DNA of 64,000 nucleotides from Candidatus Parcubacteria bacterium. GTDB lineage: Bacteria; Patescibacteriota; Microgenomatia; UBA12405. Made by a program: the position numbers and the translations under genes. The notes beneath the pieces are model-generated. The model did no database searches, was not told the DNA's origin, and saw only the letters and a list, made by a program, of their open reading frames with translations. The stretch covers positions 18,077-82,076 of the forward strand of contig JAEWUV010000007.1 of the NCBI GenBank assembly GCA_023396915.1, in the 5' to 3' direction. Positions 29,903 to 36,431 of the stretch are shown piece after piece (within the stretch, counting starts at the first letter, position 1; every line of letters starts with the position of its first letter).

Positions 29903-30370
29903 TTATTCTTGAGTTTCTATTGGAGTTTCAACTCTCTTTACTTTTTTGACTTTCTTAACAGATTTTTCAACCACTGGCATTGGTTTTTGAGTAGTTAAAA
30001 GGTCAATAATTCTATCAAGTTTTTTATTTAAAGCTTCAATCTCAGCTCGGGTATTATCCTGTCTGTAATCCTTAACATCTCTTTGTTCAAATCTTCGGTT
30101 ATTGCCACCAAAATCTCTATTCCCGCCGTCACGGCCACTGGTTTTTTCAAAACAATTACTGCAATAAACCGGTTTTTCACCAGTTGGTCTGAAAGGTAAT
30201 TCACATTCAGCTCCGCATTTATCACAAATAGCCGAAAACATCTGACGATCTTCTCGATTTCTGTCAAAACCACCTCTGCTTCCACCACCAAAGCTTCGAC
30301 CTCGGTTTCCACCGCCAAAACTTCTGTTGCTAAAATTTTTAAATCCACGATCATTTCCAAAATTTTTCAT
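29903..30370 (-). CDS. small RGG/RG-rich protein with a CxxC-x17-CxxC zinc ribbon (nucleic-acid-binding type)
   Basis: N-terminal GGGNRGRSFGGGSRGGFDRNR repeats, CDKCGAECELPFRPTGEKPVYCSNC, a second RG-rich stretch, and a Lys-rich C-terminus. Confidence 0.55.
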   Translation of the reverse strand: MKNFGNDRGFKNFSNRSFGGGNRGRSFGGGSRGGFDRNREDRQMFSAICDKCGAECELPFRPTGEKPVYCSNCFEKTSGRDGGNRDFGGNNRRFEQRDVKDYRQDNTRAEIEALNKKLDRIIDLLTTQKPMPVVEKSVKKVKKVKRVETPIETQE

Positions 30371-31566: not shown

Positions 31567-31867
31567 TTAAAGTATATCAGAAAATTCTACTTTCCCATTT
31601 TTAATTTTTACTCCTTCACTAATTAACTTTCTTTCTTTTTCTTTTGATAGATAATCATCAATATGACCAAAATATCCACCAATTTCTCTGTTACTTTTTA
31701 TAACTCTATGACAGGGAATATGTATTGGATTGGGATTATTTTTCAAAGCATTTCCTACTGGCTCTATAAGCTTTTGAGTGTAATTTCTCCGCCACCTGCT
31801 TATAAGTCATTACTTTGCCTTTCGGAATCTGTTTTACCACTTCATAAACTCGCTGACTAAATTTCAT
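31567..31867 (-). pseudogene. methylated-DNA-protein-cysteine methyltransferase (MGMT/Ogt) DNA-binding/active-site domain, interrupted by a +1 frameshift
   Basis: Frame A gives MKFSQRVYEVVKQIPKGKVMTYKQVAEKLHSKAYRA. Then one extra A (gcc-a-gta, about plus 31755-31762) shifts into VGNALKNNPNPIHIPCHRVIKSNREIGGYF...SDIL*. The span is 301 nt, i.e. 3n+1. The active-site PCHRV is intact. Confidence 0.7.
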
Positions 31868-31888
31868 AGTCGATTTTATCTTGATACT

Positions 31889-32317
31889 CTAAGCCGCCTT
31901 ATACACCACTCTTTCTATAATTTTACCACCCTCTATTGTCTCCCTTGTATGCAACTCAACCGGTATTTTATCAAAATCATTGCGAAACCAAGGATCAGCA
32001 TCATCCCACTGTTCTTTTTTTGCTATCATATAAAAATTAGTTTTTCCGTGTTCTCCTACATCCAAATGTCTGATTAGTTCCAAATCTTTACCATCCCAAG
32101 TAAAGGTTATCTTGTCTTCATCCTTCGTATATTTAAAAGAAACTTTCTTCCTTTTGGCCTTGGTCTGTAAACGTGCCGCCATTTTATCTTCCCAAGGAGT
32201 TTCTTTTAAATCCCCATTTTCTCTACCAAAACCAGCAAAAGGCCTCCCGGTTGAACGGGAAATTAACTCACGTATCACACTAATATTAATATTAGAACGT
32301 ATGGCTTCACTAGTCAT
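31889..32317 (-). CDS. hypothetical protein (142 aa)
   Basis: Intact ORF, no recognised motif. Part of the tRNA-Glu-proximal block. Confidence 0.5.
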   Translation of the reverse strand: MTSEAIRSNINISVIRELISRSTGRPFAGFGRENGDLKETPWEDKMAARLQTKAKRKKVSFKYTKDEDKITFTWDGKDLELIRHLDVGEHGKTNFYMIAKKEQWDDADPWFRNDFDKIPVELHTRETIEGGKIIERVVYKAA

Positions 32318-32351
32318 TAACCTATATTATACGATATTTTCGTTTTTTTAA

Positions 32352-34169
32352 CTAATATGGAGAGTATAATACTCCATTAACATAAATTAAAATCTTTTTC
32401 CCTTCTTCAAAAACGATATCTTCACAAGCCCAATACAATCTCCAAATTTGGTATTCACCCGCTGGTATTGTGACAAAAGAAACCTGATCTCCTGACTGAA
32501 TCTTTTCCCTAATCTCAATTTTATTTAATTCATTATACTTTTTCTCGTCTACAGTCACCCATATTGCATTCTTATCTACTTTCACTCCTTTAACTGGCTC
32601 ACAGCCAGCAAAATGAGGAAAATCACGTGACCCCATTTTAACCGCTACCTTTTTAACTTCATCTTTGGTTGCTTTATCAACTACTATCGATTCTTCTTCT
32701 GCAATCTGATTGAGGATAAAATTTCGCCAATATGTGATAACTTCAGTATAATTCGTCTGTCTCAACAAATCTGTATTAATGGTAATTTTTAATCTTTGGA
32801 TTTTTATTTGAAGAGTCTCATCATCCATCCAATTATCTTTAAATCTAAGACTAGAAGTCAGTTTTGTTTGATGTTTAATGGTTCGGTAGTATAGTATCTG
32901 GTTAAGAACTTCAGCTTTTAATTCTTGTAGGGCAGTCTCTTTTATTTCTGGACTAGATTCTTGAGCCAATTCATAAAAATGTTCTACATCTTTATTTCCT
33001 TCATAAAAAAGACTTTTTTCGTCACCCAAAGCGTAAAGATAAGCCATAAAATATTCCTCGTCTTGAGGAGGGGAAACACGATCAGCTATGTGCATATTAT
33101 CAGCCGAACGAAGCAATGCCAATAATACCAATAATGGGTTTTCGTCATCTAAACTTACTTTAAAATATTCCAAGCCTAAAGACTGATTTTTTCCTAATTT
33201 GCGTCCAGCATATTTTTTGCCTACTAGCTCAATTTTGGGCATTTCCTTATCTATAAAAAGTCCTCTCAACCTATCTATCCACTCTCTTAACTTTTCTCCA
33301 TTATTATCTTTAGCCTCAGAAAAAATAGAGATACTCCGAATTCCATCTAATCTTTCACAGGCCACAAAAAGATCATTTCCATCAACTAAAAAAGGACCTT
33401 GGTCAGTTACGATTTTTACCATGTAACTTTTATCGAACTTATCAGCATTATGCATTAAAACAGCGTCTCTTAAATCATTTGTCGCTTTCTCTCCAAAAAT
33501 ACTCCCTAAAACACCCCTAATTGCTACTTTTTCTCCATTAACTTCTGTTAAACCATAATTAATTTTATCTGCCCCAGTTTGGCTATGTGTTACCTTGGGT
33601 AAATGTTTTGATTCAGATTCAGGATAGCCCAAATCATGAAATAAAGCCATGTTAGCCAAAAGAAATCTCACTTTCTCTGTACTAAGGCCATATTCCTTCT
33701 TAAATTTTTCGATTACTTTTGGGTGCACTTCAATATTTTCATCGATATTGCCTGCCACCCATAAACTATGATTAAAATTATGTGATACATAATTTTGAGG
33801 ACTATTTAAATCTTGATCAATTCCTCGCTGTAAAACAAAATTCAAATGTCCCAATAGCAAAGATTGTTCATCGGGGGTTATTTGTTGTCCATTCAGTAAT
33901 AAGTCTTGGTAAAAAGACATTACTTTTTTTAAACCACCTTTCCTGACAAAAAAATCTTCAACCCGTAATAACCTAATTTCGTCAACAGCTTGTTGTTTCA
34001 GTTCAGATAAATAGTTATTAACTATTTCAATCGAAAATGTATTTAGTTCAGCTAAATAAACCTCATTAGTAATAGTTCCTCTGTCTACCAAATCACTTCT
34101 TATACTAATATCTCCTGGTCGAGGTACCTTAAAAGAAAAATCTTTTCCAGATTGATCTCTATCTACCAT
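32352..34169 (-). CDS. large HD-domain protein (HD phosphohydrolase fold near the N-terminus, with a C-terminal ~360-aa region of unknown function)
   Basis: HD-superfamily ligands in order: HSLWVAG ... LFHDLGY ... LMHNAD. The rest is unrecognised. Confidence 0.6.
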   Translation of the reverse strand: MVDRDQSGKDFSFKVPRPGDISIRSDLVDRGTITNEVYLAELNTFSIEIVNNYLSELKQQAVDEIRLLRVEDFFVRKGGLKKVMSFYQDLLLNGQQITPDEQSLLLGHLNFVLQRGIDQDLNSPQNYVSHNFNHSLWVAGNIDENIEVHPKVIEKFKKEYGLSTEKVRFLLANMALFHDLGYPESESKHLPKVTHSQTGADKINYGLTEVNGEKVAIRGVLGSIFGEKATNDLRDAVLMHNADKFDKSYMVKIVTDQGPFLVDGNDLFVACERLDGIRSISIFSEAKDNNGEKLREWIDRLRGLFIDKEMPKIELVGKKYAGRKLGKNQSLGLEYFKVSLDDENPLLVLLALLRSADNMHIADRVSPPQDEEYFMAYLYALGDEKSLFYEGNKDVEHFYELAQESSPEIKETALQELKAEVLNQILYYRTIKHQTKLTSSLRFKDNWMDDETLQIKIQRLKITINTDLLRQTNYTEVITYWRNFILNQIAEEESIVVDKATKDEVKKVAVKMGSRDFPHFAGCEPVKGVKVDKNAIWVTVDEKKYNELNKIEIREKIQSGDQVSFVTIPAGEYQIWRLYWACEDIVFEEGKKILIYVNGVLYSPY

Positions 34170-34229
34170 AGACCAGATTGTATCATTTTTATACCTATAA
34201 TAAAAGAATTATTAGTAAAATCTTCAAAG

Positions 34230-35171
34230 CTAAAAAGAGTCTCCATTTCTTAAAATTATTTCAGAACATTGTTGGAATTCATATGAATCATATTTTGAAA
34301 CGGAAGGAATTCTTCTATTTTTATACATTTCTTGAACCTCGTGGTATCTTTGTAAAAACCACAAATAAGCTAACGTTGTATCCTGATTATATTCATCAAA
34401 AAAACAAACCCTTTCTGCAGTATTAGTTGGTAATTCCATTGCTTGATTAGTGGACCAGACTCTATCTCTAATCAAGGTTTGGGTTTTTAAGTCTAAGTCA
34501 CGTTGTAATAATCTAATAAAACCATATTTAAACCCAAAATTCCCAATAAGTTCACTTTCATCATAAAATTGATAACCTTGATTAAAACATACTTTCCCCC
34601 GACTTAAACCAGTCTCACAAGTCTTTAAATAATCTTTTATCTGACTTTTTAACGCCTTTCTTATTTTTCCACTAAGACCGGTTGTTAACCCCATCTCTTC
34701 AAGCACTTTTTCTCTAGCACTTTTCCACATACCCATTTCACCAAAAACTATTCGCGAATTTAAAATTCTGTCTGGGTAAATTAAACCAGAATCTCTTGAA
34801 ACATAAGATAAAATATCTTCATTAATGTATAAAACACGTGGGTCTCCATCAGTCTTTAAATCATAATCGAAAACAGAGGAATAAGGTATCCCGTAAATTT
34901 CGAAAAATTTTTCATTAATTTGTTTCGGGGTAATCTCATTTCGTTTTTTTTGGTATTGAAGATACACCACCTCAGTTCTTGATTGAGGATGTCTTTCTCT
35001 TTTCCCATCACTTCCAACAACAACAGCACAAAAACCATTTTCTAATAAAAAATCTCTCATCAGGGATAAGGTATTTCTAACCTCGGTCAAATAAGCGGAA
35101 TTAATATCATCCAAATAACCCTTATATTTAGGTAATGGCATTTCATATGGAGATACTTCTTTTGAAACCAT
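34230..35171 (-). CDS. GlnD/GlnE/DUF294-type nucleotidyltransferase-fold protein with a degenerate metal-binding motif
   Basis: LLENGFCAVVVGSDGKRERHPQSRTEVVYL aligns with the GlnD signature [27 protein letters not shown], but the DxD residues are T-E-V. Confidence 0.6.
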   Translation of the reverse strand: MVSKEVSPYEMPLPKYKGYLDDINSAYLTEVRNTLSLMRDFLLENGFCAVVVGSDGKRERHPQSRTEVVYLQYQKKRNEITPKQINEKFFEIYGIPYSSVFDYDLKTDGDPRVLYINEDILSYVSRDSGLIYPDRILNSRIVFGEMGMWKSAREKVLEEMGLTTGLSGKIRKALKSQIKDYLKTCETGLSRGKVCFNQGYQFYDESELIGNFGFKYGFIRLLQRDLDLKTQTLIRDRVWSTNQAMELPTNTAERVCFFDEYNQDTTLAYLWFLQRYHEVQEMYKNRRIPSVSKYDSYEFQQCSEIILRNGDSF

Positions 35172-35199
35172 CGGGCAATTATATCATTTACTTTCTGTG

Positions 35200-35271
35200 T
35201 GACCCCACGGAGAATCGAACTCCGATTACCAGGATGAGAACCTGATGTCCTAACCGTTAGACGATGGGGCC
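35200..35271 (-). tRNA. tRNA-Glu (anticodon CUC)
   Basis: Reverse complement: acceptor GGCCCCA/TGGGGTC plus A73, U8, D-arm GTCT-AACGGTTA-GGAC, anticodon loop TTCTCAT, T-arm CGGAG-TTCGATT-CTCCG. CCA is not encoded. Confidence 0.75.
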
Positions 35272-35294: not shown

Positions 35295-36431
35295 ATGTAT
35301 TTTACCAAATATAGACCACATTTTAAGCTTATTCTTTTAACTATTCTTTCGTCTCTTCTGTTTTGGTTAATTTTCTATTCCAATCTTCCCAGCAAAATCG
35401 GTTTTGGAGATGTTTCTCTTGAAACTATTTTTGCCAACTATGATGGGCCAAATTATATGGTTATTAGTAAGTGTGGTTACAACAAAAATTGTATCGGTCC
35501 AAATTTTTCTTTACCCCAAAGTTTAGAATATTATCCAGCTCACTTTCCCGCCTTTCCTTTTTTAATAAAATTTTTCAACAACTTTACCACTGGCCCTAAA
35601 GCCATGCTTTTTTCCACTCTTTTGGGATCAATTTTTTTAAGTTTAATTTTTTATGAATTTTTAAAACTTTTTGTAAACGACAAAAAAGCTTATTGGTTAA
35701 GTGCTTTACTTTTATTTTTCCCAGCCAGACTTTTTGTTTTACGTTCTGTTGGTGCTCCCGAGACTTGGTTTTTGGCAAGTATTTTGGCATCGATTTATTT
35801 CTTCAAAAAAGATAAAATTTGGCTTTCGGCTATTTTTGTCGCCTTAGCCCAAGCTTTTAAAACTCCAGCCATTTTACTTTTAGCTTCTTATTTTATTATT
35901 TTCGTACACGATTTAATCCAAAAGAAAAATATTTCTCTTGCTGTCAAAAAATTTTATCCTTATCTTTTAGTTCCAGTTACTGTTTTGGCAATTTTTTATC
36001 TGTATTATCTTCAAACCGGCAATTTTTGGGCCTATTTCCAAAGCGGTGATAATTTCCATTTAAACTTTTTACCCTATACTGTTTTTATTAGTACTAAATC
36101 TTGGATTAACACTATTTGGTTGGAAGATATTATTTACATCTTTTTTATAGCCGTCTACGGAGTCTATAAATTAATCAAAAAATACAAATTCGATATTATT
36201 ACTATTTTTCCACTAATTTTTGTCATCGCTACTTTGTTGGTGGCTCATCGTGATATCAGTCGTTATATTTCTCCTGTTTATCCATTTTTATTTTTGGCCT
36301 TTAGTCAATTTTTAACCAAAAAATCGGTCAAAATAATTTTACTTCTTTTACTACCAGCCATTGTTTTATACGGAATTAATTTTGCCATCGGCAACGTCGC
36401 CCCCATTTCCGACTGGACTAATTATTTGTAA
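35295..36431 (+). CDS. polytopic membrane protein, GT-C-like (PMT/ArnT-type glycosyltransferase fold suspected)
   Basis: 378 aa, about 10 TM helices. No soluble domain and no diagnostic motif confirmed. Confidence 0.5.
   Translation: MYFTKYRPHFKLILLTILSSLLFWLIFYSNLPSKIGFGDVSLETIFANYDGPNYMVISKCGYNKNCIGPNFSLPQSLEYYPAHFPAFPFLIKFFNNFTTGPKAMLFSTLLGSIFLSLIFYEFLKLFVNDKKAYWLSALLLFFPARLFVLRSVGAPETWFLASILASIYFFKKDKIWLSAIFVALAQAFKTPAILLLASYFIIFVHDLIQKKNISLAVKKFYPYLLVPVTVLAIFYLYYLQTGNFWAYFQSGDNFHLNFLPYTVFISTKSWINTIWLEDIIYIFFIAVYGVYKLIKKYKFDIITIFPLIFVIATLLVAHRDISRYISPVYPFLFLAFSQFLTKKSVKIILLLLLPAIVLYGINFAIGNVAPISDWTNYL

Follow-up and report, generated by a model that had tools for sequence, protein, structure and literature searches.

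Background: nucleotidyltransferases of the GlnE fold and HD phosphodiesterases

The known members of the GlnD/GlnE/DrrA clade of nucleotidyltransferases (NTases) transfer an NMP to a protein hydroxyl, their targets being PII, GS or Rab1. DUF294 proteins are usually fused to CBS or cNMP sensor domains, and class I phosphodiesterases (PDEs), which are HD enzymes, carry the PROSITE signature HD[LIVMFY]xH. GlnD itself has both activities in one chain, an N-terminal uridylyltransferase NTase and, for removing the uridylyl group, an HD domain (PMC4285133).

Layout of the locus

The window analyzed here, a 64-kb stretch of DNA from a genome of ~907 kb, contains an NTase and an HD protein that are encoded side by side but, as a first-pass annotation of the sequence had stated, by separate genes. 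These genes and the neighbors listed here all lie on the same strand, downstream of a tRNA gene:

35199..35271, minus strand: tRNA-Glu, anticodon CTC (ARAGORN), 27 nt upstream of the NTase gene
34230..35171, minus strand: ORF encoding the 313-aa GlnD/GlnE/DrrA-type NTase
34971..35015, minus strand: active-site loop of the NTase, G53-S54-D55-G56...E59...S64-R65-T66-E67 (register from two alignments)
34836..34838, minus strand: codon for R112, at the beta-3 position of the NTase (from family column counts)
32352..34169, minus strand: ORF encoding the 605-aa HD-superfamily protein
33030..33872, minus strand: HD/PDE-like catalytic region, residues ~100-380 of the 605-aa protein (from invariant residues; codons verified)
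31889..32317, minus strand: ORF encoding a 142-aa protein of unassigned fold, a conserved downstream partner of the HD protein
31567..31867, minus strand: broken MGMT-type (PCHRV) DNA-binding-domain gene (from the sequence and its three-frame translation)

The three ORFs of 313, 605 and 142 aa that had been annotated on the minus strand are all present, and the successive gaps from the tRNA-Glu gene through the MGMT ORF measure 27, 60, 34 and 21 nt. The frameshift reported for the MGMT-type gene is real: a single extra base lies near positions 31750-31760 and recurs identically in four assemblies from different runs. Its orthologue in the close relative L015 is intact (97 aa; PF01035 match, E 9e-28), and the gene is a neighbor that lies outside any module.

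We consider it probable that two units with independent evolutionary histories happen to lie side by side here, in a Patescibacteria chromosome dense with genes. The first would be a stand-alone NTase that binds NTP and passes an NMP on to a hydroxyl group of some housekeeping protein target; the second would be the HD enzyme, which most likely hydrolyzes a nucleotide-type phosphodiester, together with the ~140-aa protein as its putative regulator or substrate adaptor.

A Patescibacteria family related to GlnD and GlnE

The 313-aa protein belongs to a large, lineage-wide Patescibacteria family that has no Pfam model: 543 clusters were recovered at E<=1e-3 and 430 at E<=1e-10, with genome records from Patescibacteria, Microgenomates, Levyibacteriota, Roizmanbacteria and one Saccharibacteria. 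Its annotation as a GlnD/GlnE-type NTase is supported by both fold and profile alignment, and the GlnD-like motif that had been pointed out, VVGSDGKRERHPQSRTEV, is indeed there. When a profile of 140 family sequences was compared with residues 1-380 of E. coli GlnD by hhalign, the match had a probability of 90% (E 1.5e-6) and spanned 121 columns, including the GxxGxxExxxxS loop, which aligns with G93...S104 of GlnD. The likeness is one of profile-level homology, and both proteins place a helical domain after an NTase core: in the 313-aa protein, a Pol-beta NTase core precedes a helical domain of the KNTase_C/HEPN clan. The G-[GS] phosphate-binding motif occurs with the spacing specific to the clade (G53-S54-D55-G56-x2-E59-x4-S64), and each residue of this loop is kept in at least 126 of the 140 sequences, G56 being the lowest. 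Folds also match those of GlnE (PDB 1v4a, 3k7d) and of the AMPylation domain of Legionella DrrA/SidM (PDB 6yx5) at 9-11% identity, although the two GlnE domains of E. coli gave no significant hhalign match to the family profile.

Searches with the 313-aa protein found no family in Pfam or NCBIfam at E<=1, no match to the curated Pfam models NTP_transf_2, GlnE, GlnD_UR_UTase, DUF294 and DUF294_C, and, as a single sequence, no match in the PDB, where a profile search gave at best a weak match to an MNT-type NTase. Two relatives match DUF294/DUF294_C (PF03445, PF10335) weakly (E 0.004 and 0.007, below the curated cut-offs); the 313-aa family shares an NTase clade with these proteins, but the 313-aa protein lacks their CBS/cNMP sensor domains. 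In contrast to GlnD, members of the family stand alone at ~320 aa, without fused HD or ACT domains and with neither PII nor GS nearby: as had been noted for glnA and glnB, homologues of GS and PII were found neither in the 64-kb window nor in 34 related loci.

A non-canonical active site

The first-pass annotation had both metal-binding aspartates of the DxD dyad replaced, by Thr and Val, and described the NTase as looking catalytically dead. Three alignments, namely one by hhalign to GlnD, the ungapped one given in that annotation and an independent HMM-based one to an MNT-type NTase, agree on a register in which D105, V106 and D107 of GlnD correspond to R65, T66 and E67. The dyad is thus not replaced by Thr and Val; the loss of the first Asp stands, the second being conservatively kept as Glu: where a [DE]-x-[DE] dyad is expected 11 residues past the Gly, the 313-aa protein reads R65-T66-E67. 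The more general claim of a non-canonical dyad holds across the family, and an assembly error is therefore ruled out as its source.

Residue columns were counted in an alignment of the 140 family sequences. Position 65 is Lys in 70 and Arg in 19 of them (K/R in 89/140), followed by Leu (13), Pro (12) and others, and is acidic in just 6/140; because this position is so variable, it does not serve as a new catalytic Lys either. Position 67 is Glu in 125 sequences and Asp in 13 (E/D in 138/140). GlnD thus differs from the family by D105 -> K/R65 and D107 -> E67, and GlnE and DrrA, which carry the canonical G-x11-D-x-D, differ from its G-x11-[KR]-x-E and from the extra, near-invariant Asp in GSDG. 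Around the dyad, S54 and E59 are kept in all 140 sequences, G53 in 139, S64 in 137 and D55 in 135. D55 is a nearly invariant residue specific to this family, and residues 53-67 form the family's lowest-entropy 15-mer.

The third canonical carboxylate is also missing from the 313-aa protein, which has R112 in the corresponding column, a putative correspondence taken from the place of this column in modelled strand E112-115. Across the family, position 112 is Glu or Asp in 120/140 sequences and non-acidic in 20/140; among the closer homologues, P0003, P0005 and P0006 also lack an acidic residue here, and P0002 and P0004 keep Glu.

Such changes might mean that the 313-aa protein, or the family as a whole, is a pseudo-enzyme: having lost the first metal-binding Asp, it would no longer transfer NMP but, with its GlnE-like fold and phosphate-binding loop retained, would serve as a regulator or scaffold that binds a nucleotide or ligand. 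In favor of this are the family-wide absence of the first dyad Asp, R112 in this member and its failure to match any NTase Pfam model, yet no segment of the protein is more constrained than the loop that has lost this Asp, and decaying pseudo-enzymes usually lose such motifs. Moreover, E67, D55 and E/D112 leave most members with three carboxylates. We regard a pseudo-enzyme as rather unlikely: a most-conserved loop argues for an active site that has been rewired and not one that has decayed, and we do not favor the earlier reading of a dead enzyme. In a rewired site, the metal ligands would be E67 and the GSDG aspartate D55, which is specific to the family, joined in most members by E/D112; these would take the place of DxD and the third carboxylate. 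Because R65 and R112 replace two of its three canonical carboxylates, this particular NTase may nevertheless be inactive, even if most of its relatives are active.

For the stand-alone NTase unit, NMP transfer to a protein hydroxyl is the most likely activity by analogy, and is proposed because its three structural relatives are protein NMP-transferases that act on a tyrosine hydroxyl; from fold, homology and conservation pattern together, we infer catalysis at a rewired metal site on a protein substrate. A broader proposal, that the unnamed Patescibacteria (mostly Microgenomates) family consists of active protein NMP-transferases with a rebuilt center and a housekeeping target, with the HD protein as a possible eraser at this locus, seems to us unlikely; as part of it, the target would possibly be related to translation, given the recurrent aaRS neighbors of the family, and the organisms would be ones without an apparent GS/PII system. 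If active, the family would form a fourth branch of GlnE-fold protein NMP-transferases besides GlnD, GlnE and DrrA, and the first such branch for ultra-small Patescibacteria. Its altered metal site would then test the plasticity of Pol-beta NTases, and nucleotidylylation would add a post-translational level of regulation to organisms for which very few regulators are known.

The 605-aa HD protein and its small partner

The HD motifs that had been read in the 605-aa protein (HSLW, LFHDLGY and LMHNAD) are present and invariant across its homologues, and its assignment to the HD superfamily is upheld by these motifs and by the profile scores of the homologues: against Pfam HD, the 605-aa protein reaches 15.4 bits (cut-off 22) and the L035 homologue 19.7 bits, and the L036 homologue, which is 27% identical, scores 28.5 bits, above the cut-off. 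The H...HD...D metal-binding motif is conserved in the homologues, with H130, H134, H178-D179, H195, H240, D243 and D357 unchanged in all 8 sequences, whose identity falls as low as 27%. Since these catalytic-type residues extend to D357 (in RxADNM), the HD-type domain covers residues ~100-380, and the part without a recognizable domain comes to about 225 aa, not the ~360 aa first suggested.

Helices make up the N-terminal region of the protein, after which come the HD/PDE-like catalytic domain, a second helical region towards the C-terminus and a small beta-rich domain, and in the structure model, which is of medium confidence (pLDDT 69.8, pTM 0.49), the predicted catalytic fold is the all-helical one of HD/PDE enzymes. 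Because of the confidence of this model, and because Foldseek returned no significant match to it in the PDB, assignment to a PDE-like subclass is tentative; sequence searches of the PDB with single proteins found nothing, and one with a profile matched the A. aeolicus A-adding enzyme weakly, in its HD-like region. The H..HD..H..H..D pattern is one that we take to be typical of binuclear-metal phosphodiesterases, from whose HD-superfamily representatives the 605-aa protein differs by its extra ~225-aa C-terminal region and its small partner ORF. Unlike class I cyclic-nucleotide PDEs, it reads HDLGYPE, which departs from their signature, and has no PDEase_I Pfam match.

Relatives of this protein (the HD605 family) are rare, amounting to 6 matches among 5.8 billion proteins and 3 metagenome loci. 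In 6/7 HD loci, an ORF of ~136-151 aa directly follows the HD gene: it is a clear homologue of the 142-aa protein in L042 (E 1.6e-17) and L043 (E 6e-17), is weakly similar in L013 and L035, and on the P0020 contig is a 136-aa ORF known by its length alone. L036, the most distant HD locus, has an unrelated 256-aa ORF in this place. The 142-aa protein itself had no match in Pfam, NCBIfam, PADLOC or PHROGs, nor in a profile search of the PDB. Across the three proteins, these four model collections yielded nothing usable beyond the weak HD match. From the HD motifs and this pairing we infer a phosphodiester substrate and an accessory role for the partner; the pair as such is scarce and travels separately from the NTase.

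Gene neighborhoods in related genomes

The three genes had been proposed to form a functional signaling or defense module, but NTase-HD adjacency is confined to this genome. It was seen in 1/~24 NTase loci and in 1/6 HD loci with a visible upstream gene (7 HD loci in total), and tblastn placed the HD protein near an NTase solely in this organism's own contigs; the search for related loci used a 17-sequence NTase alignment, the 140-sequence set being too diverse. Elsewhere, the NTase has housekeeping neighbors that vary by clade (SIMPL/CysRS, LysRS, FtsZ, SSB, YceG, PRPP synthetase, Trp/TyrRS, Maf and GreA), and the close relative L015 shows the gene order NTase-MGMT-LytR, the HD and 142-aa genes being absent from between them. 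The surroundings of the HD gene also differ: the locus L042 has no NTase, and the 3' end of a tRNA-Glu immediately precedes HD-137aa; in L043 a divergent 232-aa gene comes before HD, and in L013 and L035 a NUDIX gene does; on the P0020 contig, where the backbone synteny is the same, genes of 139, 261 and 90 aa precede HD. These comparisons suggest that the HD605 family is absent from most NTase-bearing genomes. The three genes are thus not co-inherited as a set, their adjacency after a tRNA gene in a compact genome is no evidence for a signaling or defense module, and the main interest lies in the NTase family. A 604-aa protein without Pfam matches near the NTase of L007 was rejected as an HD605 homologue after reading its sequence and by tblastn.

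Within this genome, the shared strand, the adjacency, the gaps of 60 and 34 nt and the lack of a terminator-like site between the genes allow co-transcription, and therefore a local functional link; a scan of the block for promoters and terminators gave no excess over shuffled sequences. Tight, co-directional spacing of this kind, along with the alignment of the NTase family to GlnD, is what a split, GlnD-like writer and eraser would look like, in which the NTase NMPylates a target, the HD protein removes the NMP and the 142-aa protein serves as target or sensor. Against such a system, the adjacency is unique, the 543 NTase clusters compare with ~9 HD605 relatives from much larger searches, and a fusion or conserved neighborhood of NTase and HD with ACT domains, as in GlnD, was not found, there being no ACT domain in the proteins scanned and no PII or GS in the 64-kb window. 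A second NTase-HD adjacency, through a LysRS-HD fusion in L005 and L021, counts in its favor, but the HD domain involved is unrelated to HD605 at the profile level. We judge a split GlnD distinctly unlikely, and two independent units remain our preferred reading.

In L005 and L021, the LysRS gene that carries this distinct HD domain and the NTase gene overlap by 4 nt, which could hint at a recurrent NTase-HD theme. The fused domain was rejected as an HD605 relative (hhalign probability 0.3%).

The tRNA-Glu gene and its surroundings

The position of the block had also suggested an island integrated at the tRNA, and the block, or the HD and small-protein pair alone, might be an accessory anti-phage or toxin-antitoxin-like module inserted at a tRNA-Glu hotspot. 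Gene content between tRNA-Glu and LytR does differ in every relative examined, the rare HD pair is patchily distributed and in L042 sits right after tRNA-Glu, and one HD605 homologue has a weak HD-CE match (E 0.0024, below the cut-off). However, the 21-nt 3' end of the tRNA-Glu occurs once in the window, even with up to 3 mismatches allowed, and a search near the block for further repeats, direct or inverted, gave just short AT-rich chance matches. Neither the six proteins scanned here nor the neighbors, judged by their precomputed Pfam matches, showed an integrase or recombinase domain, and GC content is flat at ~0.34, the block ranging over 0.29-0.35 and the 14 kb around it over 0.29-0.42. 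PADLOC scans of the three proteins returned nothing at E<=1, and PHROGs scans nothing meaningful; nor did relatives turn up in IMG/VR, searched with the NTase and HD proteins, in plasmids, searched with the HD protein, or in phage genomes, searched with the NTase. The flanking synteny is that of chromosomal housekeeping genes, and the pair elsewhere adjoins NUDIX and UDG, giving it the look of nucleotide or DNA maintenance, not of defense. An inserted accessory module is, on this evidence, very improbable, and the island and defense interpretation is not borne out.

An association between the NTase and tRNA-Glu was rejected beyond the close clade, other loci having various tRNAs or none. Within that clade, L011 and L014 carry the same tRNA-Glu after the orthologous 378-aa membrane-protein gene, and L015 has it too, in a locus that ends before the membrane-protein gene. 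On our preferred reading, tRNA-Glu is an ancestral landmark of a segment with variable gene content and not an integration scar.

Layout of the locus

The window lies within a ~907-kb scaffold from a metagenome-assembled bacterium with a GC content of ~34% (ENA ERZ28596294), and relatives of its genes come from records titled Patescibacteria, Microgenomates, Levyibacteriota and Roizmanbacteria. All of the ORFs described in the first-pass annotation were found, as were the tRNA-Glu and the broken MGMT gene, with 27, 60, 34 and 21 nt between the first five features:

35199-35271, minus: tRNA-Glu(CTC)
34230-35171, minus: NTase, nucleotidyltransferase-like ORF (313 aa)
32352-34169, minus: HD605, HD-superfamily ORF (605 aa)
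31889-32317, minus: 142-aa ORF
31567-31867, minus: MGMT-type DNA-binding-domain gene, frame broken by one extra base
next after the MGMT-type gene, minus: LytR_cpsA_psr gene

The MGMT-type gene (PCHRV motif) carries its extra base near 31750-31760, leading to a premature stop at 31736-31738. Four assemblies made from different sequencing runs share exactly this frameshift, so the gene is a genuine pseudogene (or contains a recoding site) and not the product of faulty assembly; L015, a locus from a close relative, has an intact 97-aa orthologue.

A large nucleotidyltransferase family with an altered catalytic dyad

Pfam, NCBIfam, PADLOC and PDB sequence searches with the NTase returned no match, and a word-indexed search recovered 17 relatives. 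Searching 1.84 billion cluster representatives with a profile yielded 543 matches at E<=1e-3 (430 at E<=1e-10), nearly all of them 300-350 aa long. The family profile aligned with residues 85-205 of E. coli GlnD (probability 90%, E 1.5e-6), and two family members had below-threshold matches to DUF294 or DUF294_C, so the original assignment of the 313-aa protein to the GlnD/GlnE-type nucleotidyltransferases was correct. The AlphaFold2 model, built on a 140-sequence alignment, is very confident (pLDDT 95.8, pTM 0.92). The family is a large Patescibacteria group with no Pfam model; it has the fold of GlnD, GlnE and DrrA, and its catalytic dyad is systematically altered. Full-text literature searches turned up no paper on this family, nor any that reports AMPylation from the Candidate Phyla Radiation, and the family itself is the most interesting part left of the finding.

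The GlnD alignment, an HMM alignment made independently with an MNT nucleotidyltransferase and the G-x11 spacing agree on a register in which D105, V106 and D107 of GlnD correspond to R65, T66 and E67 of the NTase. The first-pass annotation, which had Thr and Val replacing both catalytic aspartates, was right that the dyad is non-canonical, the first Asp being lost, and off by one in the remainder, the second being conservatively kept as E67; with this correction its observation is confirmed. An assembly error does not account for the altered dyad, which is family-wide over 140 sequences: position 65 is Lys in 70, Arg in 19, Leu in 13, Pro in 12 and other residues elsewhere, with an acidic residue in only 6, and position 67 is Glu in 125 and Asp in 13. 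Directly after Gly-Ser stands a near-invariant Asp (D55; 135/140) that GlnD and GlnE lack, and beta-3 position 112, the usual place of the third carboxylate, is Glu or Asp in 120 of the 140. The window NTase has Arg here (R112), and several of its closer homologues are likewise non-acidic; the two closest after the identical match have Glu.

Residues 53-67 form the lowest-entropy 15-residue segment of the family, followed by 213-227, 267-281 and 131-145 in the helical domain or linker. No other part of the protein is as constrained as the active site, which is therefore not in decay, and, rather than the catalytically dead enzyme previously proposed, we favour a centre that is functional but rewired, for nucleotide binding or catalysis, with D55, E67 and E112 taking the place of the canonical triad. 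A pseudo-enzyme is a less probable but serious rival, and somewhat more likely for the window NTase, in which the carboxylates at positions 65 and 112 are both missing.

At L015 (1773-2716) a frameshift in a GGAAAAGG run divides the NTase orthologue into ORFs of 104 and 213 aa; since another assembly has a near-identical 312-aa version that is intact (P0003), the split is probably an assembly error and not a pseudogene. Two homologues have rare architectures: P0080 (548 aa) is extended at the N-terminus by a Cys-rich stretch of ~237 aa that matches nothing in Pfam, and in P0147 (419 aa) the C-terminal helical segment appears to occur twice, with the motif RAVQYD...FLL..P...RL repeated.

HD605 and its small partner

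HD605 scored 15.4 bits against Pfam HD, for which the cut-off is 22 bits, and a search of 5.8 billion proteins recovered, besides the identical sequence, only five relatives, to which metagenomes added three loci. The homologue at L036 (779 aa, 27% identical) exceeds the cut-off at 28.5 bits, and H130, H134, H178-D179, H195, H240, D243 and D357 are invariant in eight sequences, so the HD-superfamily membership assigned earlier is solid. The pattern H..HD..H..H..D is typical of binuclear-metal phosphodiesterases (HD enzymes such as HD-GYP, PgpH and YqeK), and phosphodiesterase-type chemistry is likely. A C-terminal part with no recognisable domain does exist; it comprises the last ~225 residues instead of the ~360 first described, as catalytic residues reach ~380, and is predicted to be helical, followed by a small beta domain.

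In six of the seven HD605 loci the HD gene is followed by an ORF of 136-151 aa. Those at L042 (E 1.6e-17) and L043 (E 6e-17) are clearly homologous to the 142-aa protein, those at L013 and L035 show weak similarity, and that on the P0020 contig is counted by position and size class; L036, the most distant locus, has an unrelated 256-aa ORF in its place. The conserved unit is HD605 plus the small protein.

The three genes do not form a module

The NTase, HD605 and the 142-aa protein had been proposed to form a signalling module. However, across about 24 loci with NTase relatives, tblastn placed HD605 near the NTase only in contigs of the window's own organism. The NTase neighbours are instead housekeeping genes conserved within subclades only: SIMPL upstream and CysRS downstream (four loci), LysRS fused to an HD domain unrelated to HD605 (two loci), and elsewhere FtsZ, SSB, YceG, PRPP synthetase, Trp/TyrRS, Maf and GreA; in most loci the gene after the NTase is convergent. 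Upstream of the HD gene lie NUDIX (L013, L035), a divergent 232-aa gene (L043), three small genes (P0020 contig) or, at L042, directly the tRNA-Glu, with no NTase. At L015 the tRNA-Glu is followed by LD-carboxypeptidase, NTase, intact MGMT and LytR, in that order, with the HD-small-ORF pair missing between NTase and MGMT. Synteny of the trio is therefore not kept in relatives: the three genes are no module, and the NTase stands apart from the pair as a gene conserved widely in the lineage.

The NUDIX hydrolase genes (L013 2019-2537; L035 3607-4200) stand upstream of the HD-small-ORF pair in more distant genomes, a uracil-DNA glycosylase family gene lies downstream of it at L035 (7248-7913), and in the window the pair adjoins the MGMT remnant. 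These recurring nucleotide/DNA maintenance neighbours might bear on the substrate of HD605.

A variable spot beside tRNA-Glu

The block had also been read as a tRNA-linked island or defence module, and the evidence is against both. No second copy of the tRNA-Glu 3' end was found in the window, other repeats around the block were just short AT-rich chance matches, GC is flat across it, and no integrase domain was present in the proteins scanned or in precomputed Pfam results of the neighbours. PADLOC and PHROGs gave no matches for the block proteins, and no relatives were found for the NTase or HD605 in IMG/VR, for the NTase in phage genomes or for HD605 in plasmids. Overall, the first-pass interpretation is partly supported: the protein identities it gave hold, but a module, an island or a defence system is not supported.

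The block is flanked by ChlI-UPF0102-DprA-378-aa membrane protein on one side and LytR-zinc finger-M29 peptidase-PGM-ArgRS on the other, and these flanks are syntenic even in a relative whose HD protein is just 44-45% identical. Between them, each relative examined (L011, L014, L015, L042 and the P0020 contig) carries a different set of genes in the short tRNA-Glu(CTC)-to-LytR segment; genes found there, or in the window at 31567-35271, include Maf, a 138-aa protein resembling HbpS, a 143-aa protein resembling GNAT, LD-carboxypeptidase, NTase, the HD-small pair and MGMT. The segment is a variable spot without integration hallmarks (no integrase, no repeats).

The 378-aa multi-pass membrane protein (35295-36431, plus), divergent from the tRNA-Glu, has no Pfam match and occupies the same place at L011 and L014 with 58-80% identity. 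The 155-aa zinc-finger protein (29903-30370, minus) begins with an RGG/Gly-Arg-rich region, contains a treble-clef zinc finger (PF23477, E 5e-17), ends in a Lys-rich tail and adjoins LytR in relatives too.

Possible activities

By analogy with its three structural relatives, the NTase would bind NTP and transfer NMP to a protein hydroxyl; HD605 may be a binuclear phosphodiesterase with a nucleotide-type substrate, modulated by the 142-aa protein. In GlnD the NTase writes and the HD domain erases (PMC4285133), a precedent for a local system in which, in the window's genome alone, the NTase writes and HD605 erases. The block genes are probably co-transcribed, as no intergenic terminator-like site was found, and a second NTase-HD adjacency at L005 and L021 points the same way, yet with no NTase-HD605 linkage elsewhere such a system is improbable.

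At L005 (8001-11122) and L021 (4845-7966), two Patescibacteria loci, the NTase homologue overlaps by 4 nt, suggesting translational coupling, a 715-aa gene for a class II LysRS (tRNA_anti-codon and tRNA-synt_2) fused at its C-terminus to an HD domain (Pfam HD, E 3.9e-8), which is unrelated to HD605 at the profile level. Speculatively, this fusion could couple Ap4A synthesis with hydrolysis.
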